From Candidatus Saccharibacteria bacterium CG10_big_fil_rev_8_21_14_0_10_47_8 (GTDB lineage Bacteria; Patescibacteriota; Saccharimonadia; Saccharimonadales; UBA10212): a stretch of DNA of 35,561 nt. Of the stretch, positions 15,642 through 33,204 are shown in pieces; within the stretch, counting starts at the first letter, position 1; each line of letters begins with the position of its first letter. Location: the NCBI GenBank assembly GCA_002793885.1, contig PFEG01000041.1:1-35561 (forward strand), given 5' to 3'. A model generated the notes under the pieces. That model did not search any database and was not told where the DNA came from. It saw only the letters and a list, made by a program, of their open reading frames with translations. Both the position numbers and the translations under genes were made by a program.

Positions 15642-17078
15642 ATGGGTCAAGCACTATATAGAAAGTACCGTTCGCGTTCACTTGATGAGGTGGTTGGGCA
15701 AGAGCACATCGTTAAGACTCTTAAAAATGCCCTAAAAAATAATAAAATCAGCCACGCTTACTTATTTACCGGCCCTAAGGGGGTCGGTAAAACCAGCGTG
15801 GCACGCATTTTGGCTCATGAAATAAACCAACTGCCGTATAGCGGCGATACAGTCAATCTCGATATCATTGAAATAGACGCCGCCAGCAACCGCCGGATAG
15901 ACGAAATCCGCGATTTACGCGAAAAGGTACACATCGCGCCAACCGCGGCTAAATACAAGGTCTATATCATCGATGAAGTGCACATGTTAACCAAAGAGGC
16001 CTTTAACGCCCTCCTAAAAACCCTCGAGGAGCCGCCGGCCCACTGTGTATTTATCCTAGCGACTACCGAGGCCCATAAGCTGCCCGAAACAATTATCAGC
16101 CGAACTCAACGATTTACCTTCAAGCCAATCAACAAAAAACAGACCGCTGACCACCTAGAAAAAATTTCTTTGAATGAGAACATCGATATCACCAGAGGCG
16201 CGTTGGAGCTGCTAGCCGAACATGGAGAAGGCAGTTTTCGTGACAGCATCAGCCTACTAGATCAGTTAAGTTCTTCACGGCAAAAAATTATCGAAGAGAC
16301 CGTCAGGGCAACCTTAGGCCTACCATCCGAAAATCTTATAAACGACCTGCTGGCGGCGATTAAAAACGGTGAGAATACTGTGCTAGTGAAGCTTCTGGAC
16401 AGCCTGCGAGACCAGGCCGTAGACCCGGTGGCCGTAAGCACCAATTTAAGTCGAAAAGTCCGCGGTTTGCTGCTTGACGAATCGGCTTCTAATATCGACA
16501 TTCAGCTGCTAAGAAACTTACTGGAAGTTAGCTCCAGCGCTCATCCACGGTCGAGTCTAGAAATCTGTCTTTTGGAAGCCTGCTTGGCATCTGCTAAAAC
16601 CGACGTAATCTCAAAAAATGTAGTGGCCAGTGTAGCGGCCAACACCGAGACTGAAATTGCCGTTAAAAAAGTTTTAGACGCTCCCGTAAATAATTCCAAA
16701 CCTCAACCGGAAGCGCCAAGTGGCGATTTTAAACTGGAAGATTGGCCCCACGTAATAGATAAGGTCAAAAGTGAGGCGACCTCCCTTTATACGGCTCTTC
16801 GTTTGGCCGTACCAAGCCTGTCGGACAACAAACTAACTTTAGCGTTCCAGTTTCCGTTGCACCAAAAAAAGGTAGCGACAAGCAAGGCCAAGGATTTAAT
16901 TGGGCGTCTAGTTGAGCAAGTATCCGGAGCTAAAATGTCAATTGAGTGCATAGTCGATAAATCCATCCAGCCTCAAGTCGAGGTTGTAGCCCCGGTACCA
17001 CTAAACGAAGCCGAACCGGATGAACACGCCCAGACCATTAGCAGTATTTTTGGCAGCACTGAGCTGTTAGAATCTTAA
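15642..17078 (+). CDS. dnaX: DNA polymerase III subunit gamma/tau
   Basis: Walker A GPKGVGKTS, DEVHML, the SRTQRF sensor motif and clamp-loader domain order. Confidence 0.9.
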   Translation: MGQALYRKYRSRSLDEVVGQEHIVKTLKNALKNNKISHAYLFTGPKGVGKTSVARILAHEINQLPYSGDTVNLDIIEIDAASNRRIDEIRDLREKVHIAPTAAKYKVYIIDEVHMLTKEAFNALLKTLEEPPAHCVFILATTEAHKLPETIISRTQRFTFKPINKKQTADHLEKISLNENIDITRGALELLAEHGEGSFRDSISLLDQLSSSRQKIIEETVRATLGLPSENLINDLLAAIKNGENTVLVKLLDSLRDQAVDPVAVSTNLSRKVRGLLLDESASNIDIQLLRNLLEVSSSAHPRSSLEICLLEACLASAKTDVISKNVVASVAANTETEIAVKKVLDAPVNNSKPQPEAPSGDFKLEDWPHVIDKVKSEATSLYTALRLAVPSLSDNKLTLAFQFPLHQKKVATSKAKDLIGRLVEQVSGAKMSIECIVDKSIQPQVEVVAPVPLNEAEPDEHAQTISSIFGSTELLES

Positions 17079-26741: not shown

Positions 26742-27677
26742 TTAGGGTTTTTTACTCAAGAGGCGAGCCAGCCCAGGCGGTATGAACGGCGCAGCGTCTT
26801 CGGCGGTCGCAACGACAGATGGTGAATGAGTGGGCACATCAGCTTTAAAGGACTTAAAGTCGGCATATATGGCCCGCATATGTTGTTCGACCCGCACGTT
26901 ATTAAAATAGTGATCGTCATCAATAGCCACGTGATAGACGGGCAAGTTAACATGCTTTCCGAGCAGATTTAATTTAAACATCGTAACGGTTATGCCACAG
27001 TAAGTCCTGATGTCATTGCATTGCCAAAGGTATATTTCAAAGTCTATACGTTCTTTGCGGGCTGCCTCATTTCGAGCTACTAACTTTGCGTTGAAGCTAA
27101 TCGCTTCACCAACACGATATCCAAGCCTAATAAACGGCCCCCTAAAAGCTACGTATTTTGCAAAAGCCGCTGGCAGCCGCCTAGAAAACAATGACGCCGT
27201 GTAACGAAGGGTAAGAAAGTTACGCCGTTTAAACTTAAAATCATCCTTATGAGTAAAACCCGCGGCGCTAACTAGCAAATCTACTTTTTGGGCGATTTCC
27301 GGGTACTTTTGGAGCATTTTAGTAATAATCATGAAGCCCAGGCTGTAGCCGGCGAGAGTAAAACGCTTATTACGATAGCGAAGCTTCACGAATGCCGCTA
27401 AGTAATCTGCCATATTATCTAATGTTGGCTTTTCACCAATTTTATAAAAGGGTTCCATACCGCCAAAACCAGGCAGATCAGGTACTGTCACGCCCCCGTA
27501 CCTATTAAGAACTTCGGCCGCCCCAAAGACTCTTTCCAGGCTGGTGTGATGACCGTATACAAACAATATCTCTCGTTTTTTGTTTTTTGGCGGTGGCAAG
27601 CGTAACATCCGGCCGGCGAGACCATTAATATATAGCGGCAGAACGTATTCTGCCATATTTTTTGTATTTTTTGGCAT
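26742..27677 (-). CDS. Alpha/beta hydrolase
   Basis: HG oxyanion-like VYGHH and nucleophile elbow GYSLGF. First gene of the minus-strand envelope block. Confidence 0.65.
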   Translation of the reverse strand: MPKNTKNMAEYVLPLYINGLAGRMLRLPPPKNKKREILFVYGHHTSLERVFGAAEVLNRYGGVTVPDLPGFGGMEPFYKIGEKPTLDNMADYLAAFVKLRYRNKRFTLAGYSLGFMIITKMLQKYPEIAQKVDLLVSAAGFTHKDDFKFKRRNFLTLRYTASLFSRRLPAAFAKYVAFRGPFIRLGYRVGEAISFNAKLVARNEAARKERIDFEIYLWQCNDIRTYCGITVTMFKLNLLGKHVNLPVYHVAIDDDHYFNNVRVEQHMRAIYADFKSFKADVPTHSPSVVATAEDAAPFIPPGLARLLSKKP

Positions 27678-27788
27678 ATCTATTGATAAATTATAGGATG
27701 TTTAGCAACTCTTGTAAAACTTCGGTGGACTTTAGGGCAATGGACGATATAAAATAGGTGTTGCTGCTTACGATTGCAAACCTTTTAT

Positions 27789-27862
27789 TTCGGGATCGTC
27801 TAATGGTAGGACACTGGGTTTTGGTCCCAGCAATCTAGGTTCGAATCCTAGTCCCGAAGCCA
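27789..27862 (+). tRNA. tRNA-Gln (anticodon UUG)
   Basis: Hand-folded cloverleaf: acceptor TTCGGGA/TCCCGAA, D arm GTCT-AATGGTA-GGAC, anticodon arm CTGGG-TTTTGGT-CCCAG and T arm CTAGG-TTCGAAT-CCTAG. Discriminator is G and CCA is encoded. U1-A72 and G73 fit Gln identity. Confidence 0.9.
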
Positions 27863-27879
27863 TAATTTAAGTTAAGGCA

Positions 27880-27929
27880 TCCCGATAGAATCGGGACATT
27901 AGGGAGTTCGAATCCCTGTCTGTCTACCA
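27880..27929 (+). other. tRNA-like 3'-half remnant (anticodon-arm-like hairpin, degenerate T arm, ACCA end)
   Basis: TCCCG-ATAGAAT-CGGGA hairpin, then GGGAGTTCGAATCCCTG and TCTGTCT-A-CCA. No matching 5' acceptor strand or D arm can be built, and there is too little room after tRNA-Gln for a full tRNA. Confidence 0.25.
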
Positions 27930-27950
27930 GATTGGACATCAAAGAAGTAC

Positions 27951-27984
27951 AGACCGGTTCCTATGACCGGTCTTTCTTTTTACC
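27951..27984 (+). terminator. Rho-independent terminator downstream of tRNA-Gln
   Basis: AGACCGG (27951-27957) pairs with CCGGTCT (27967-27973), followed by TTCTTTTT. Confidence 0.65.
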
Positions 27985-28181
27985 CCTTGTATTCCACCCT
28001 TGTTTTGCAGTTCGTGTCCTATCGCTATTATGGCGAGTAAACGACCGAACCGCTCACATCTGTTAATATTCTCGATTTACCCTTTAAACTGGTTCTGAAC
28101 ATGACCGTATGCCTATATGGCGATTGAGCGCTTTGAAGAGTGACCGGGTTCCATGACCGTTCGATATGACATGGAGTTACC

Positions 28182-28478
28182 CTATACCTCGAGCAGTCTA
28201 ACTTTTACTGATGTAGTATTCCCGATTTGGAGGTCCTCATTTTTCCGGACATCTTTTTTAACAGGCAGAAGATAACTCCTAGATTTGCTGTCAGGAAAAA
28301 TTGATGTTCTCCAAGCTGTCTTGCCAATGGTTGCTTCAACCCTCACTGACCCGAAGCCCCGCTTTGGGGCGGCGTTTATCAGACGAATTTCCTCATAATA
28401 CTTTTTAGGTAAAGATATAAAGCACCAAGCTCCTTGACCTTGCCATTCCCACAGTTCAGCTTTAAACGTCAGCTCCAT
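28182..28478 (-). CDS. DUF1905 domain protein
   Basis: 98 aa. The WCFISLP...GFGSVRVEATIGKTAWRTSIFPDSKSRSYLLPVKKDVRK pattern is typical of DUF1905. Confidence 0.75.
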   Translation of the reverse strand: MELTFKAELWEWQGQGAWCFISLPKKYYEEIRLINAAPKRGFGSVRVEATIGKTAWRTSIFPDSKSRSYLLPVKKDVRKNEDLQIGNTTSVKVRLLEV

Positions 28479-28591
28479 GCCTACAAGTATAAACGCTCAA
28501 TTACTATTACTATGTATATAAAATAGCTTGTGACTCCTCGCAAGCAACCACAAGCTATCAGCCAGCATAATATCAAATCGTTTACATTAAG

Positions 28592-28610
28592 TTAAGTGTT
28601 TGCTTAAATA
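28592..28610 (+). promoter_or_regulatory. Operator 1: TTAAGTGTTTGCTTAAATA (palindrome TTAAG-N6-CTTAA) within the dsbA-like promoter
   Basis: Identical 19-mer to 29882-29900. It lies between a -35-like TTTACA (28581-28586) and overlaps a -10-like TAAATA (28605-28610). ATG at 28618 follows 7 nt later, suggesting a leaderless transcript. Confidence 0.55.
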
Positions 28611-28617
28611 TGTAAAC

Positions 28618-29307
28618 ATGAAACTTCTTCTTAGCTCTATTGCTGCGATTTTAATAGTTAGTATAGGGCTTTTTATATTTTGGCCGAGCGAAGCACCATC
28701 AACCGCCCAAAATAATACTACTTCTCCAGCTGTTGCCGCTCCCGAAACGCCCTCAGCCCAAACCACCGAACTTATTATCGGAGACCCGAATGCCAAGGCT
28801 ACCATTATTGAGTATGCTGATTACAAATGTCCGTCCTGCGGTGAATTTCATCAAAAAGCTGGCAAGCAACTACGTGCTAATTACGTTGATAAAGGGCTCT
28901 TGAAAATAGTATTCAGGCCTTTCCCTGTGTATGCCGTAGATGGTGCCCAGGCGCTGGTTGGATCGTATTGTGCGAAAGACCAGCAACAATTTACCGAGTA
29001 CCACGATGTTTTGTTCGAATATATGTGGGTGAACCACTTCCGGCAGGGAGATTATCAAAAAGCTATTGATACCGTGCTGACAGAAAGTGTTATGAACGAT
29101 CTAATGAAAAATATAGGCATGGACCCGAAAGTCTATAAAGAATGTATGGATAGTAAGAAACACGATAAAGCCTATTACGATACTATTGATCTAGCCGCAC
29201 CCGATGAAATTCAAGGTACGCCAAGCTTTATCATTAACGGGCAAAAGATCGTTGGCCCGCAGCCGTATAGCGTATTTAAAACACTGGTGGATATTCAACT
29301 ACAATGA
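28618..29307 (+). CDS. Membrane-anchored/secreted DsbA-family thiol:disulfide oxidoreductase (CPSC)
   Basis: N-terminal hydrophobic anchor (LLLSSIAAILIVSIGLFIFW), IIEYADYKCPSCGEFH active site and GTPSFIINGQ cis-Pro region. ATG 28618 is preferred over the TTG at 28600, which lies inside the operator. Confidence 0.8.
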   Translation: MKLLLSSIAAILIVSIGLFIFWPSEAPSTAQNNTTSPAVAAPETPSAQTTELIIGDPNAKATIIEYADYKCPSCGEFHQKAGKQLRANYVDKGLLKIVFRPFPVYAVDGAQALVGSYCAKDQQQFTEYHDVLFEYMWVNHFRQGDYQKAIDTVLTESVMNDLMKNIGMDPKVYKECMDSKKHDKAYYDTIDLAAPDEIQGTPSFIINGQKIVGPQPYSVFKTLVDIQLQ

Positions 29308-29879
29308 GCTGGCCAAAACTGTGGTTATTAAAGCTGAAAATTAGCCTGAGGTCTGCCCTCAAAGTGTTTCGGCGACCAGCATATATTGTACTAGCCCTAT
29401 TAACTACCCTTGTCGCTAGTGGTTCGATTCTCTGGTCGCTCAATCTTGATCTACTGCGCTATATAATCTTCGAGGCACCTATAAGTGCCCTCGCCAAAGT
29501 CGATTTTTTCTTTGATATATATAAAGGTGTCTATACTGACTTCAGCAGCGCCCAAAGTACTCTGGTAGTGATTTTTTCAGTTTTATTTGGTATAAACCTA
29601 GCCTTGCTGGTTTTCGTACTGAAGCACCGAGGCTTCAAAGCTATCCCAAAGAAAAGTGGTGCGGGCGGATTTGCTTTAGCAATAATCGGTGGAGGCTGTA
29701 TTGCCTGCGGAACATCCTTAATTGCTCCGCTGCTTGCTACTTTCGGCGCTTCTGCCACGCCACTTATCCGAGACCTGGCAACTGTATTCACCTTTATTGG
29801 CAGCCTACTCATCATATATTCCATATACAAACTAGGTGCTGTGTGTTCGTATATATTTACTTCGCAGGACTTGACTTAA
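29304..29879 (+). CDS. Four-TM membrane protein with intramembrane GGGCIACG (CxxC) motif, translationally coupled to the DsbA-like gene
   Basis: ATGA overlap with the dsbA-like stop. There are four hydrophobic segments. Basic residues in the N-terminus and the TM2-TM3 loop predict that both face the cytoplasm. CIAC sits mid-TM3. I recognise no family assignment. Confidence 0.7.
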   Translation: MSWPKLWLLKLKISLRSALKVFRRPAYIVLALLTTLVASGSILWSLNLDLLRYIIFEAPISALAKVDFFFDIYKGVYTDFSSAQSTLVVIFSVLFGINLALLVFVLKHRGFKAIPKKSGAGGFALAIIGGGCIACGTSLIAPLLATFGASATPLIRDLATVFTFIGSLLIIYSIYKLGAVCSYIFTSQDLT

Positions 29880-29881
29880 GA

Positions 29882-29900
29882 TTAAGTGTTTGCTTAAATA
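29882..29900 (+). promoter_or_regulatory. Operator 2: TTAAGTGTTTGCTTAAATA within the arsR-family gene promoter
   Basis: Identical to operator 1. -35 TTGACT at 29871-29876, 18-nt spacer, -10-like TAAATA at 29895-29900, and ATG at 29907 follows 6 nt later. Confidence 0.55.
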
Positions 29901-29906
29901 GTTAAT

Positions 29907-30206
29907 ATGAAATTACTTAAAAACCGTCCGGTAAAGCTAAATAATCGCGAAGAGCGTCTAGTTAGCGCAATGCAATTACTTGGCGATCAAACCCGCTTTA
30001 AGATCTTCAAACTCTTGCTGTCGGGAAGAGAGATGTGCGTTACTGAGATCGCCGATGCAATCGGTATTTCTGTCCCAGCTGTTTCTCAGCATTTCCGTAT
30101 TTTCGAACTGGTTGGTTTGGTTGAAAAGCAGCGGTATGGACAGAAAATCTGCTATTTACTGAAAACTGAGGACCAGTTTGTTAAAGAATTAATCCGCATA
30201 GTTTAA
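29907..30206 (+). CDS. ArsR/SmtB-family winged-helix transcriptional repressor (two cysteines)
   Basis: LLGDQTRFKIFKLLLSGREMCVTEIADAIGISVPAVSQHFRIFELVGLV is a canonical ArsR HTH core. The only Cys residues are in EMCV and KICY. Confidence 0.85.
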   Translation: MKLLKNRPVKLNNREERLVSAMQLLGDQTRFKIFKLLLSGREMCVTEIADAIGISVPAVSQHFRIFELVGLVEKQRYGQKICYLLKTEDQFVKELIRIV

Positions 30207-30226
30207 ACCTACAAGAAGGAGGGTGT

Positions 30227-30478
30227 ATGTCTAAGATAACAATTTATAGTACTGCGACTTGCGCCTATTGCAAGATGCTTAAAGGCTATCTGCAAAGCAA
30301 AGATATTGCCTACGAGGAAAAGCACGTTGACCAGGACCAGTCTCTGGCAATGGAAATGTATGAAAAAAGCGGGCAGATGGGTGTGCCATTCACTGTCATA
30401 GAGAAAGAGGACGGCAGCGAAGAAAAGATCCTCGGCTTTGACAGGCAAAGGGTTGATAGCGTATTAGGACTCGCCTAA
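30227..30478 (+). CDS. Glutaredoxin/NrdH-like small redoxin (CAYC)
   Basis: ITIYSTATCAYCKMLKGYL and the GVPFTVI cis-Pro motif. 83 aa, preceded by a strong SD (AAGGAGG). Confidence 0.8.
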   Translation: MSKITIYSTATCAYCKMLKGYLQSKDIAYEEKHVDQDQSLAMEMYEKSGQMGVPFTVIEKEDGSEEKILGFDRQRVDSVLGLA

Positions 30479-30483
30479 AGCCT

Positions 30484-30780
30484 ATGAAAGCGCTCTGGAA
30501 GAATAAAACGATTGCCGAGAGTGACGACACCATAACGATAGAAGGTAATATTTACTTCCCGCCGCATTCGGTAAATCACAACTTCTTAGAGAAAAGCGGG
30601 TTTCACACACTCTGCTATTGGAAGGGTTTGGCCAGCTATTACCATGTCAGCGACAACAAGAACCGCGATAAAAATATTGCCTGGTATTACCCTCGTCCGA
30701 CCTGGCTGTCGAAGAAAATAATGGGGAAAGACTTTTCTAACTATGTAGCCTTTGACGGACGGATGAAAGTAACCTCATGA
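30484..30780 (+). CDS. DUF427 domain protein (paralog 1)
   Basis: IAESDD...IEGNIYFPP...CYWKGLASYY...AWYYPRP...YVAF is the characteristic DUF427 motif order. Confidence 0.75.
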   Translation: MKALWKNKTIAESDDTITIEGNIYFPPHSVNHNFLEKSGFHTLCYWKGLASYYHVSDNKNRDKNIAWYYPRPTWLSKKIMGKDFSNYVAFDGRMKVTS

Positions 30781-30790
30781 GGAGTATACA

Positions 30791-31255
30791 GTGAAGAGAC
30801 GGACTATTTTCCTTATCCTAATAGTGATCTTTATTGCTTTAGGCACAGCGCTGCTGGCTGTGGCGAATATTGATGATAAGCAGAATACACAAGACGTAAA
30901 AGTAATAAACGAGGCCGCGTCAAATAATGGCGCCGTCGGTTCTTCTGCCGCTTATAGAGCTTATTCACCAGAAGCAGTTGCCTCAGCCTCGGCGCAGGAT
31001 AAGATAGTACTCTTCTTCCATGCCAGCTGGTGCCCTACCTGCCATGTACTTGATAAGGACATTACAGACAACTCAGATAAGATCCCAGCTAATGTACGCA
31101 TCCTGAAAGCAGACTTTGACAACGAAACCGAACTTAAAAAGAAGTATGGAGTCAGGCTCCAGCATACCCTTGTCCAAGTCGATAAAAATGGCCAAAAGAT
31201 TGCTTTATGGAGCCAGAGCCCAAGCTTATCTGATGTATTAAACGAGTTGCAGTAA
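30791..31255 (+). CDS. Membrane-anchored extracytoplasmic thioredoxin-like protein (WCPTC)
   Basis: GTG start after GGAG, an N-terminal TM anchor (IFLILIVIFIALGTALLAV), and the LFFHASWCPTCH thioredoxin active site. Confidence 0.8.
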   Translation: MKRRTIFLILIVIFIALGTALLAVANIDDKQNTQDVKVINEAASNNGAVGSSAAYRAYSPEAVASASAQDKIVLFFHASWCPTCHVLDKDITDNSDKIPANVRILKADFDNETELKKKYGVRLQHTLVQVDKNGQKIALWSQSPSLSDVLNELQ

Positions 31256-31256
31256 C

Positions 31257-32888
31257 ATGGAACTAGTTATCCTTTCATTGCTGGCTGGCGTGTTGACGGT
31301 CCTGTCGCCGTGCGTACTGCCTTTGCTGCCTGTTGTATTGGCAGGTTCGGCGGCTGAAAAGAGTAAACGCGCGCCACTCATAATTATTGGCAGCCTCGCT
31401 ATATCAGTTATAGCCTTTACGCTGCTCATTAGAGGTAGCACATTGTTGCTTGGCGTGCCGAGTAGCGTATGGTTGATTGTGTCTGGAGCGCTGGTAACTT
31501 TCATCGGTATCACGCTGGTATTTCCGGCAGTATGGGAGTGGATGACCATAAAATTACATTTGCAGGATGAAGCCGGGCGCCTAACAGCGATATCCAGTAA
31601 AAGAGCTGGCAATACCCGTAATGTTTTACTTGGGCTCTCGCTTGGCCCGGTCTTTACAAGTTGTAGCCCAACCTACGGCTTGATACTGGCAACTGTGCTC
31701 CCGACAAGTTTTGCGGTCGGTACGATCAATCTTATAGCTTACAGCCTTGGCTTAAGCGCAGTTTTATTAGCTGTAGCTTACGGTGGGCAGCGTGTCACAA
31801 AACGTCTCGGATGGGCCATAGACCCGATGAGCAAGTTCAGGCGTGGGCTAGGTATATTTATTGTAATAGTTGGTTTACTTATTATGACTGGACTAATTAA
31901 AGACGCTGAGACTTGGCTGGTAGACCGCGGCCTGCTCGGCACTACTAAATTTGAACAGCGGCTACTTGACTCCGACAGCGATACCAAAAATAAAGCCAGT
32001 AAAGATGTACCGGATTTCTTGCTTAAGTCTTTTCCTAAAACAGACTGGTCAAAAGCAGATCCGACGATCAGCAAAGCCTTGAGTGGTGGCCCAGGTAAAG
32101 ACGGCATTCCCGCCATAGATGAACCCAAATTCGAACCAATTGGTAATTTCAAGCATTCGGATAGCGTACAAGCGATCGTTATTGAGGATAAAGACACGGT
32201 CAGAGTCTACCCGTATAACATTCTAACTTGGCATGAAATCGTCAACGATACAGTAAATGGCAAACCTCTCGCTATCACTTTCTGCCCACTATGCGGCAGC
32301 GCCATTGTTTACAATCGAACTCTGCCAGATGGTGTCAGCACCTTTGGCGTCAGCGGAGCATTGATTGAGAGCAATATGGTGATGTTTGACCGCGGCAGCG
32401 AAACACTCTGGCAACAAAGTACTGGTCAGGCGCTGGCCGGAAGGCACTTTGGCCAAAAACTTGAACTAGTTAAATTTCAACTGCTTACTGTGGGTGAAAT
32501 AAAGTCAAAATATTCAAATGCCCAGATTATGAGCGAGAACACCGGTCACAGCCGGGATTATGCACGAAATCCATATTCTGGTTACGAAGACAGTGACGAT
32601 TTCTTCTTCAGCCCGAGCGATACTGACAAGCGCTATCCGTCTAAATCTATATTTGTAGTATTTGATGTAGATGGCACTTCGGTAGCTGTTCCCTGGCTAG
32701 AACTAAAGAACGAGCAAGTCTACGATACACAAGTTAATGGGCAAACCATAAAGCTCAGCAAGAGCGATAACGAACTGACAATTACTAAGTCCGACGGGGC
32801 AGAAATACCGTTTTATTTTGAAATGTGGTTCTCGTGGGCTGTTCAGTATCAGGACAAGGGAGTCGTGTTTGATCCAACTAAACAATAA
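31257..32888 (+). CDS. CcdA/DsbD-type transmembrane thiol-electron transporter fused to a C-terminal DUF3179 domain
   Basis: TM1 reads LSPCVLPLLP and TM4 reads FTSCSPTYG (the two CcdA cysteines). After about residue 270, GKDGIPAIDEPKF and FCPLCGSAIVY are typical of DUF3179. It starts 1 nt after the thioredoxin-like gene. Confidence 0.8.
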   Translation: MELVILSLLAGVLTVLSPCVLPLLPVVLAGSAAEKSKRAPLIIIGSLAISVIAFTLLIRGSTLLLGVPSSVWLIVSGALVTFIGITLVFPAVWEWMTIKLHLQDEAGRLTAISSKRAGNTRNVLLGLSLGPVFTSCSPTYGLILATVLPTSFAVGTINLIAYSLGLSAVLLAVAYGGQRVTKRLGWAIDPMSKFRRGLGIFIVIVGLLIMTGLIKDAETWLVDRGLLGTTKFEQRLLDSDSDTKNKASKDVPDFLLKSFPKTDWSKADPTISKALSGGPGKDGIPAIDEPKFEPIGNFKHSDSVQAIVIEDKDTVRVYPYNILTWHEIVNDTVNGKPLAITFCPLCGSAIVYNRTLPDGVSTFGVSGALIESNMVMFDRGSETLWQQSTGQALAGRHFGQKLELVKFQLLTVGEIKSKYSNAQIMSENTGHSRDYARNPYSGYEDSDDFFFSPSDTDKRYPSKSIFVVFDVDGTSVAVPWLELKNEQVYDTQVNGQTIKLSKSDNELTITKSDGAEIPFYFEMWFSWAVQYQDKGVVFDPTKQ

Positions 32889-32901: not shown

Positions 32902-33204
32902 ATGCAAGCAATTTGGAATAACAAAGTAATCGCCGAGGCAGACAAAAAAGACCTGATATATATTGAAGGTAACTGGTACTTTCCACCCGACGCAATTAAA
33001 AAAGAATTCCTCAAGCCTACGGATAAACACACCACCTGCTTCTGGAAGGGTCTGGCCAGCTATTACCAAGTCGACGTAGATGGCGAAGTTAATGAAGACG
33101 GAGCCTGGTACTACCCCGATCCTACGCCCAGTGCTATTGATAAAGTTAAGAAAGATTTCACGGATTATGTTGCCTTTTGGCACGGCGTGGAAGTTAAAGA
33201 GTAG
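32902..33204 (+). CDS. DUF427 domain protein (paralog 2)
   Basis: IAEADK...IEGNWYFPP...CFWKGLASYY...AWYYPDP...YVAF. About half of the positions are identical to paralog 1 by hand alignment. Confidence 0.75.
   Translation: MQAIWNNKVIAEADKKDLIYIEGNWYFPPDAIKKEFLKPTDKHTTCFWKGLASYYQVDVDGEVNEDGAWYYPDPTPSAIDKVKKDFTDYVAFWHGVEVKE

Follow-up and report, generated by a model that had tools for sequence, protein, structure and literature searches.

Twin palindromes in a Saccharibacteria redox island as probable operators of an adjacent ArsR-family repressor

Two neighboring operons in a Saccharibacteria genome begin behind the same 19 nucleotides (nt), which raises the question of what protein, if any, reads the shared sequence and in response to what. 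The operons lie on contig PFEG01000041.1 (assembly GCA_002793885.1) of Candidatus Saccharibacteria bacterium CG10_big_fil_rev_8_21_14_0_10_47_8, and positions 1–35,561 of this contig were analyzed, a stretch referred to here as the window. One operon starts with dsbA, encoding a thiol:disulfide oxidoreductase, and continues with a gene for a membrane protein with a CxxC motif. The other starts with arsR, encoding a regulator of the ArsR/SmtB family, and continues with a glutaredoxin gene (grx). The reading favored here, to which we give a probability of roughly 0.78, is that the adjacent ArsR protein uses the twin 19-mers as its operators. This repressor, which has two conserved cysteines, would occlude two leaderless promoters and be released through its thiols. 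To our knowledge, almost nothing is known of how Saccharibacteria and other Patescibacteria regulate their genes.

The twin sites and their promoters

The 19-mer TTAAGTGTTTGCTTAAATA occurs exactly at 28592–28610 and 29882–29900 on the plus strand, at the positions given in a preliminary description made from the letters of the window alone. With up to three mismatches allowed, these are the only matches in the window, where 0.04 would be expected and none of 100 shuffles gave two or more. They are also the only two in the 788,170-base assembly, across which the reversed 19-mer, used as a control, has no match. The similarity extends over an ungapped unit of 35 nt (28581–28615 and 29871–29905, 80% identity), and both copies contain the inverted repeat TTAAG-N6-CTTAA that had been described.

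The promoter elements were largely placed correctly as well. The -35-like hexamers TTTACA and TTGACT lie where they had been found, and the end of TAAATA is 7 nt from the ATG at 28618 and 6 nt from the ATG at 29907. TAAATA is thus at the place assigned to it, but its reading as a -10 element with an 18-nt spacer fits the orthologues less well than an extended -10, TG-C-TTAAAT, with a 17-nt spacer. The extended reading is preferred because it is homologous to the promoters of orthologous loci (TGcTAAAAT). The resulting features are as follows.

28581..28586, plus strand: -35-like hexamer TTTACA of the dsbA promoter, 17 nt 5' of TTAAAT at 28604–28609; orthologous arsR promoters have a TTGACA-like hexamer there
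28591..28608, plus strand: putative operator O1, 18-nt core GTTAAGTGTTTGCTTAAA; 22.8 bits with a position weight matrix (PWM), rank 2 in the genome; the 19-mer at 28592–28610 is common with O2; orthologous sites stand before dsbA in 8 other genomes
28601..28609, plus strand: predicted extended -10 TG-C-TTAAAT over the right half of O1, from alignment to orthologues; its last T is at -9 from the ATG at 28618
29871..29876, plus strand: -35 hexamer TTGACT of the arsR promoter; most orthologues have a TTGAC-like hexamer 4 nt ahead of the site
29881..29898, plus strand: putative operator O2, 18-nt core ATTAAGTGTTTGCTTAAA; 26.3 bits with the PWM, the best in the genome; 19-mer at 29882–29900
29891..29899, plus strand: predicted extended -10 TG-C-TTAAAT over the right half of O2, from alignment to orthologues; its last T is at -8 from the ATG at 29907

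On this alignment, the nonpalindromic center of the sites, TGTTTG, would reflect the superimposed extended -10 (TGn) and not the protein's own site.

Two additional repeats at these promoters were considered and set aside. The extra TTAAG that had been reported to precede each palindrome is indeed present in both copies, but its offset is 0 nt in one and 1 nt in the other, and no orthologous promoter keeps it. The differing offsets and the absence from orthologues rule it out as a third half-site, and it is regarded as incidental. An outer 8-nt inverted repeat, GTTTACAT / ATGTAAAC, flanks O1 at 28580–28587 and 28610–28617, spanning the -35 hexamer and ending at the start codon. Its center is 1 nt off that of the inner palindrome, and neither O2 nor any of the orthologous sites inspected has such a repeat; it was therefore rejected as part of the operator and is either unexplained or a product of chance.

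Conservation at orthologous arsR loci

Orthologues of the window's ArsR protein, taken at E ≤ 1e-14, are present in 70 of 401 sampled genomes of Saccharimonadales, and 40 orthologous loci besides that of the window were retrieved (counts out of 41 include the window). In all 40, the operon that includes arsR begins behind an 18-nt palindrome, WTTWAG-N6-CTWAAA. The palindrome stands directly 5' of arsR in 39 of them; in the remaining locus, L090, it stands 5' of an operon in which dsbA, the gene for the transmembrane CxxC protein and arsR follow one another, with arsR overlapping the gene that precedes it. Orthologues that carry the site reach down to 37% protein identity, and other classes of Patescibacteria also have the arsR–grx pair together with a TTAAG...CTTAA palindrome. 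The placement of the palindrome at the head of every one of these operons lends comparative support to the earlier proposal that the adjacent ArsR gene is autoregulated, which is probable.

The usual arsR promoter has the layout TTGACA, N4, TTTAAGtgttTGcTAAAAT, N6, ATG, which amounts to a consensus -35, a 17-nt spacer and an extended -10 (TGnTAAAAT). Column information amounts to 1.2–2.0 bits in the site and 0.2–0.9 bits in the -35, and to about 0.1 bits farther 5'; the site columns were selected by a PWM that was itself derived from these sites. At positions 4 and 15, TTTTAG pairs with CTAAAA in four of four cases, and TTTAAG is found with both CTTAAA and CTAAAA; this is a weak test of symmetry because the right half doubles as the -10. 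Comparison of the recognition-helix residues (SQHFR versus SQQLK or SQQCK) with the operator bases gave no informative covariation, and the TTAAG core is constant.

One column outside the palindrome also stands out. The T at +3 after the 18-mer (29901 in the window, and 28611 at O1) is near-invariant, with 1.82 bits, in leaderless and leadered arsR promoters alike, and neither the palindrome nor an obvious promoter element gives an explanation for it.

The second site at dsbA and sites far from arsR

The site at dsbA has counterparts in other genomes. In seven of them (loci L062, L063, L065, L077, L078, L081 and L082), a second site precedes a dsbA/CxxC pair located just 5' of arsR, and in two more (L090 and L087), the pair lies within the arsR operon behind a single site. 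These layouts favor the coregulation of the DsbA/CxxC pair that the preliminary description had put forward. In a PWM scan of the window's whole genome, the twin sites score 26.3 and 22.8 bits, and the shuffle maximum is 16–18 bits. Only about seven chance matches of at least 14 bits arise on both strands of this genome (1.58 Mb), so the sites found in the 200 nt before dsbA in seven of seven twin-layout genomes are not due to chance.

The third-best PWM match in the window's genome is TTTAAGGGTGTGCTAAAA, at 16073–16090 of contig C31 (20.1 bits). It lies 11 nt before a 57-aa open reading frame (ORF) that begins MSGDQFTKLFKYIEEF and is upstream of a 219-aa ORF, and it may be a weak third operator or merely an extended -10 promoter. 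A further arrangement is seen in the genome of locus L077 (G249:C22), where a third site of 25.7 bits, at 550–567 on the minus strand, is added to those at dsbA and arsR. It precedes a second glutaredoxin paralogue, whose gene points away from a ccdA/trx block.

Matches at a distance from arsR show what else the element accompanies. Twenty further motif matches far from arsR in regulator-positive genomes were picked by position with the neighboring genes unseen, and 14 of the 20 precede thiol-redox genes: trxB (five), grx (three), dsbA (two) and, once each, trxA, a TlpA-like gene, a DUF427 gene and an FMN reductase gene. By Pfam, the TlpA-like product is a TlpA/AhpC-TSA-like anchored redoxin and the FMN reductase is NADPH-dependent. 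The best of the distant sites, in trxB and grx promoters, form a 24-bp perfect palindrome, ATGTTTAAGTAATTACTTAAACAT. Because the distant copies lie immediately 3' of a TATAAT or TACAAT box (e.g., cgtatacaatgTTTAAGTAATTGCTTAAAcat), in front of genes that carry Shine-Dalgarno leaders, the palindrome is not a by-product of -35 and -10 elements, and it has the properties expected of a portable protein-binding site. Its positions also agree with the occlusion geometry suggested earlier for the twin sites: At arsR and dsbA the site occupies the spacer and the -10, and at trxB, grx and trxA it lies over +1, after TATAAT, so that bound protein would be in the way of RNA polymerase in either case.

The link between the motif and the regulator can be read from its distribution. 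The strict pattern WTTWAGYRNTTRSTWAAA is present in 59 of the 70 genomes with an ArsR orthologue and in 27 of the 331 without one (8.2%). For the reversed pattern, the control, the corresponding counts are 5 of 70 and 29 of 331 (8.8%). The motif exceeds chance solely in regulator-carrying genomes, and the informative part of the comparison is the control-level rate in the genomes that lack the regulator. Ten pattern-bearing genomes from the group without an orthologue were retested at a lax threshold. Two of them have a borderline orthologue (E about 1e-14) adjoining the site; the other eight have no orthologue near the pattern match, in line with chance.

Leaderless transcription

According to the preliminary description, both mRNAs would be leaderless. 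No GGAG, GAGG or AGGA occurs in the 17 nt before either ATG (28618 and 29907), and grx has AAGGAGG. The same spacing is common among the orthologues, with the ATG 7–8 nt after the 18-mer and no Shine-Dalgarno sequence in 28 of 41 arsR promoters. More distant arsR orthologues have the site after the -10, together with a GGGAA leader.

A genome-wide comparison places these promoters in context. In 618 long ORFs of the window's own genome, the offset of the last T of TANNNT from the first ATG has a peak at -7, -8 and -9, with 53, 49 and 36 occurrences compared with about 17 at other offsets. About 140 of the 618 have a TANNNT ending 7–9 nt before the ATG, and only about 21% have GGAG, GAGG or AGGA at -18 to -4. 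The two signals are mutually exclusive, being found together in only 8 genes against about 31 expected. Because the TANNNT peak excludes the Shine-Dalgarno sequence, leaderless initiation would be a normal mode in this organism. Both window promoters fall within the peak, the last T of TTAAAT being at -9 for dsbA and -8 for arsR. The claim of leaderless mRNAs is therefore favored by the arsR spacing and by the genome-wide -10 peak; its weaker part is dsbA, as discussed below.

The ArsR protein as a sensor

The regulator matches the Pfam family PF01022 (HTH_5) with 53.3 bits against a cut-off of 22, which places it in the ArsR/SmtB family. Its AlphaFold2 model, with a predicted local distance difference test score of 93.6, has helices at residues 13–25, 28–37, 45–52, 56–69 and 90–98 and a hairpin at 72–85. 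This is the a1-a2-a3-aR-b1-b2-a5 fold, and Foldseek relates the model with a probability of 1.00 to HlyU, CadC, SmtB and CzrA.

Two cysteines, C44 and C82, are invariant in all 41 orthologues. An alignment of 47 database homologues also has C44 invariant and C82 in at least 90% of the sequences. In the model, C44 is in a two-residue strand (43–44) just before helix 3, and C82 is in the second wing strand (80–85). The sequence and the orthologue alignments contain no CVC triad at helix 3, where EMCVTEI provides a single cysteine, and the C-terminal helix, DQFVKELIRIV, has no histidine and no His/Asp/Glu cluster. Neither of the features used to recognize a metal sensor, CVC/CXC in helix 3 or Asp/His/His/Glu in helix 5, was found.

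The invariant C44 and C82 point to a thiol switch. They are at or next to the positions that make contact in RexT, an ArsR/SmtB-family regulator considered below, as mapped by alignment coordinate ranges rather than residue by residue. A disulfide from helix 3 to the wing that distorts the DNA-binding wing would be a reasonable, though unproven, mechanism. The regulon content (Trx, TrxB, Grx, DsbA, TlpA/CcdA and FMN reductase) fits disulfide or oxidant stress rather than metal or persulfide sensing.

Proposed mechanism and competing explanations

In the proposed mechanism, each operator is an 18-nt palindrome that takes up the spacer of a sigma-70-type promoter and reaches into its extended -10, and the transcript would very probably begin at the ATG or 1 nt before it, giving a leaderless mRNA. 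A bound ArsR dimer would exclude RNA polymerase and so repress both its own operon (arsR-grx-DUF427-trx-ccdA/DUF3179-DUF427) and the dsbA/CxxC-membrane pair. Under disulfide or oxidant stress, C44, where helix 3 starts, and C82, on the wing strand, would be oxidized and the repressor released. The cotranscribed glutaredoxin could then re-reduce the repressor, closing a feedback loop.

Several observations weigh against this scheme. The right half-site is also the -10, and conservation is hence partly promoter-driven. The -10 hexamers of the window are weak, TTAAAT lacking A2 and TAAATA lacking T6, and a simple consensus promoter scanner called neither promoter. The scanner missed them because both hexamer readings violate its A2/T6 rule, and it is uninformative here because its total count equals the shuffle expectation. 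The leaderless geometry of dsbA is found only here and in L090, the leaders in other genomes being 25–64 nt. In the window's own genome, trxB and the second grx (contig C17, approximately 1062–2365) are without a site within 250 nt, and no site precedes the FMN reductase, gdh or zincin genes either. The regulon appears limited here to two adjacent operons, and membership is presumably fluid between lineages, since trxB on C17 is siteless, yet a strong trxB site exists in five other genomes. Finally, the motif was derived beside arsR, which makes its occurrence in regulator-positive genomes a partly circular argument, and related genomes are not independent of one another.

Some of these points would suit a system with no regulator at all, in which the 19-mer is a duplicated strong promoter core (-35 and extended -10) or a dispersed repeat. 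A core of this kind is in keeping with the overlap of the right half and the -10, with the central TG as part of an extended -10 and with the 80% identity of the 35-nt unit between the copies. It does not account for the left half-site TTTAAGT, which lies in the spacer and is near-invariant (1.2–2.0 bits), with the -35 weaker, nor for the same palindrome 3' of unrelated TATAAT promoters at trxB, grx and trxA, and the other leaderless promoters of the genome do without the palindrome. A dispersed repeat is ruled out by the presence of only two copies in the genome, and the explanation as a whole is the least credible of those considered, with very little probability left to it. The operator might instead be real and be bound by another transcription factor, with the ArsR gene merely among its targets. 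Binding by the ArsR protein is predicted rather than experimental, and eight of the ten retested pattern-bearing genomes have no orthologue near the match, both of which leave some room for another factor. However, the rate in regulator-negative genomes equals that of the reversed control, so those matches look like chance, and all 40 loci have the site at the head of the arsR operon. These genomes, of 0.6–1.2 Mb, encode few regulators, and autoregulation through an inverted repeat over the regulator's own promoter is the norm in the ArsR family, as with SmtB, CzrA, CadC and RexT. Binding by a different factor is accordingly judged quite improbable.

A different question is whether ArsR binds the sites but senses a metal, a metalloid or a persulfide, in the manner of SmtB, CadC and ArsR or of BigR and SqrR. 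The nearest relatives in sequence and fold, SmtB, CzrA, CadC and NmtR, are metal sensors, and C44 falls in the helix-3 region where ArsR and CadC have thiolate ligands. Against this stand the single cysteine of helix 3 (EMCVTE, with no CVC), the lack of a C-terminal His/Asp/Glu cluster and the cysteine positions of BigR and SqrR in helix 2 and helix 5, which are unmatched here. The targets also argue for thiol chemistry, comprising Trx, TrxB, Grx, DsbA, TlpA/CcdA and FMN reductase and including no efflux pump, metallothionein, arsenate reductase, sulfide:quinone reductase or persulfide dioxygenase. Sensing of this type is unlikely, if slightly less so than binding by another factor, and repression by ArsR with release through C44 and C82 remains the preferred account.

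Comparison with known systems

The closest known analogue is RexT of Nostoc sp. PCC 7120 (PDB 7TXM, 7TXN and 7TXO; PMC8960804). RexT binds a palindrome when reduced, is freed by oxidation of cysteines at helix 3 and is re-reduced by a redoxin under its control (PMC8960804). Its helix-3 Cys41 contacts wing residues 75 and 77, and oxidation breaks the contact (PMC8960804). No other ArsR-type regulator is known to control a thioredoxin gene, and the authors of the RexT study found the switch almost exclusively in Cyanobacteria (PMC8960804). The system described here shares the ArsR fold and an adjoining thioredoxin-fold gene, grx being directly 3' of arsR in the window and in 38 of the 40 other loci, and the family profile detects RexT as a homologue (E 1.3e-6). 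RexT is nevertheless not the nearest relative in the PDB, as SmtB, CzrA, CadC and HlyU score higher. While RexT forms a vicinal Cys40–Cys41 disulfide, the present protein has a single cysteine where helix 3 begins and another in the wing. The operators also differ, ATTCG-N15-CGAAT for RexT compared with TTAAG-N6-CTTAA (WTTWAG-N6-CTWAAA) here, as do the host, Patescibacteria, and the regulon, which is wider (trxB, dsbA, tlpA/ccdA and DUF427). By analogy, the system appears to work like RexT or an OxyR-Grx circuit but outside those groups.

BigR, SqrR, HlyU and YgaV are likewise ArsR-fold, metal-independent thiol switches that bind inverted repeats, and HlyU is the first-ranked Foldseek match (TM-score 0.77), with SqrR and BigR also among the matches. 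In these sensors the cysteine pair spans helix 2 and helix 5 and either forms a sulfenate or reacts with persulfide. In the present protein the cysteines are residues 44 and 82, outside the corresponding helices (28–37 and 90–98). The regulons of these known sensors serve sulfide oxidation or virulence and not Trx/Grx/Dsb functions, and no sqr, pdo or rhodanese gene is among the targets at the arsR loci and the distant sites.

The best relatives by sequence are SmtB, CzrA and CadC, in which, by the same logic as proposed here, a dimer sits on an imperfect palindrome over the -10 and transcription start of its own operon. Their 12-2-12 operators are similar in size to the 24-bp ATGTTTAAGTAATTACTTAAACAT. 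The present system differs in lacking their sets of metal ligands, in its thiol-redox regulon and in its half-site sequence. A looser resemblance, on the proposed mechanism, is to OxyR-GrxA and sigmaR-RsrA-TrxBA, where an oxidized sensor induces the Trx/Grx system that resets it. Those sensors are a LysR activator and a ZAS anti-sigma factor, whereas here a small winged-helix dimer would act by repression. In a search of the literature, neither an ArsR regulon nor leaderless transcription turned up in any paper on Saccharibacteria or the Candidate Phyla Radiation and, RexT apart, no earlier description of this regulon was found.

Implications

Strong comparative evidence supports a real, conserved repressor–operator pair of familiar logic in which the cysteine arrangement, the operator and the host group would be new. 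A broader reading is more tentative and falls a little short of even odds: a Patescibacteria-wide thiol-stress regulon under an unrecognized class of ArsR redox sensor, working through a C44–C82 disulfide that is reset by its own glutaredoxin. This regulon would have an arsR–grx core along with trxB, trxA, dsbA and its new CxxC membrane partner, tlpA/ccdA, DUF427 and FMN reductase. If this is true, the Candidate Phyla Radiation would have its first defined, conserved circuit of transcription factor, operator and regulon. DUF427 and DUF3179 would also be connected with thiol-redox biology and, together with the four-transmembrane-helix CxxC partner of DsbA, be assigned to a thiol/disulfide stress response.

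The finding provides a candidate regulator together with a precise candidate operator, a promoter architecture and a regulon, all of which are shared by hundreds of species. The predicted cysteine arrangement for ArsR-type redox sensing is unlike those of RexT and of BigR/SqrR. There is also a practical side, as the promoter and operator are candidates for a native inducible element in the emerging genetics of Saccharibacteria (PMC10633639).

Genes of the redox island and other observations

The genes of the island are listed here with the evidence for their assignment.

28618..29307, plus strand: DsbA-like thiol:disulfide oxidoreductase (CPSC) with a membrane anchor, predicted leaderless; Pfam Thioredoxin_4 1e-27 and DSBA 2.4e-13
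29304..29879, plus strand: 191-aa membrane protein with GGGCIACG, presumed partner of DsbA; no Pfam match; adjoins dsbA in 10 of 41 loci
29907..30206, plus strand: ArsR/SmtB-family putative repressor, 99 aa, predicted leaderless and autoregulated; Pfam HTH_5 2.5e-14
30227..30478, plus strand: glutaredoxin/NrdH-like redoxin (CAYC); Pfam Glutaredoxin 7e-14
30484..30780, plus strand: DUF427 protein; Pfam
30791..31255, plus strand: anchored thioredoxin; Pfam
31257..32888, plus strand: DsbD_TM (CcdA) fused to DUF3179; Pfam
32902..33204, plus strand: second DUF427 protein; Pfam

From arsR onward, all genes are codirectional with gaps of 1–13 nt, apart from the arsR–grx gap of 20 nt, and the same downstream genes follow arsR–grx in many orthologous loci. 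Terminator-like matches on the plus strand are found only at 29598, in the CxxC gene, and 30051, in arsR, with none among the genes after arsR. The -35 hexamer of arsR (29871–29876) coincides with the last two sense codons of the 191-aa membrane protein gene, and the stop codon follows at 29877–29879. The gap between the CxxC gene and arsR is 27 nt, which is too small for a terminator, and read-through from the dsbA promoter is therefore likely. On such a transcript, we infer, the AUG of arsR would not be 5'-terminal, nor would a Shine-Dalgarno sequence precede it. An Rfam scan of 27600–30400 gave only a tRNA-Gln and no known RNA element at the sites.

Other features lie in the divergent gap between dsbA and a DUF1905 gene on the minus strand (28478–28182). 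A perfect 10-nt inverted repeat, ATAGCTTGTG-N16-CACAAGCTAT, occupies 28523–28558. As minus-strand RNA it would form a 14-bp stem, with a z-score of only -0.67 for an 87-nt fold, and it could be the site of another regulator or a hairpin in the 5' untranslated region of the DUF1905 mRNA. A promoter-like TTAACT-17-TATTAT with a TG, at 28595–28567 on the minus strand, faces the DUF1905 gene, although the count in the scan is at chance level. Its -35 overlaps the left half of O1, and O1 might affect the divergent DUF1905 gene also.

Observations at other loci extend the picture. A zincin-like metallopeptidase gene (PF06262) adjoins the operator in L106, L110 and L114, and in L106 and L114 it is divergent from dsbA with a palindromic site common to both; the peptidase may be an unexpected member of the regulon. 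In L115 (G320:C23, about 117640), a Grx-like ORF seems interrupted, with MKQVTIY... 21 nt after a strong site and a long in-frame stretch 92 nt after it, which may represent a frameshift, a pseudogene or an assembly error. Contigs with the locus in L121/L142, L144, L143 and L167 carry submitter labels of Limnocylindrales, Dormiibacterota, Parcubacteria or Burkholderiaceae. Those of L144, L143 and L167 match genomes assigned by the genome collection to the order of the window, and all of these are probably mislabeled or misbinned metagenome-assembled genomes.

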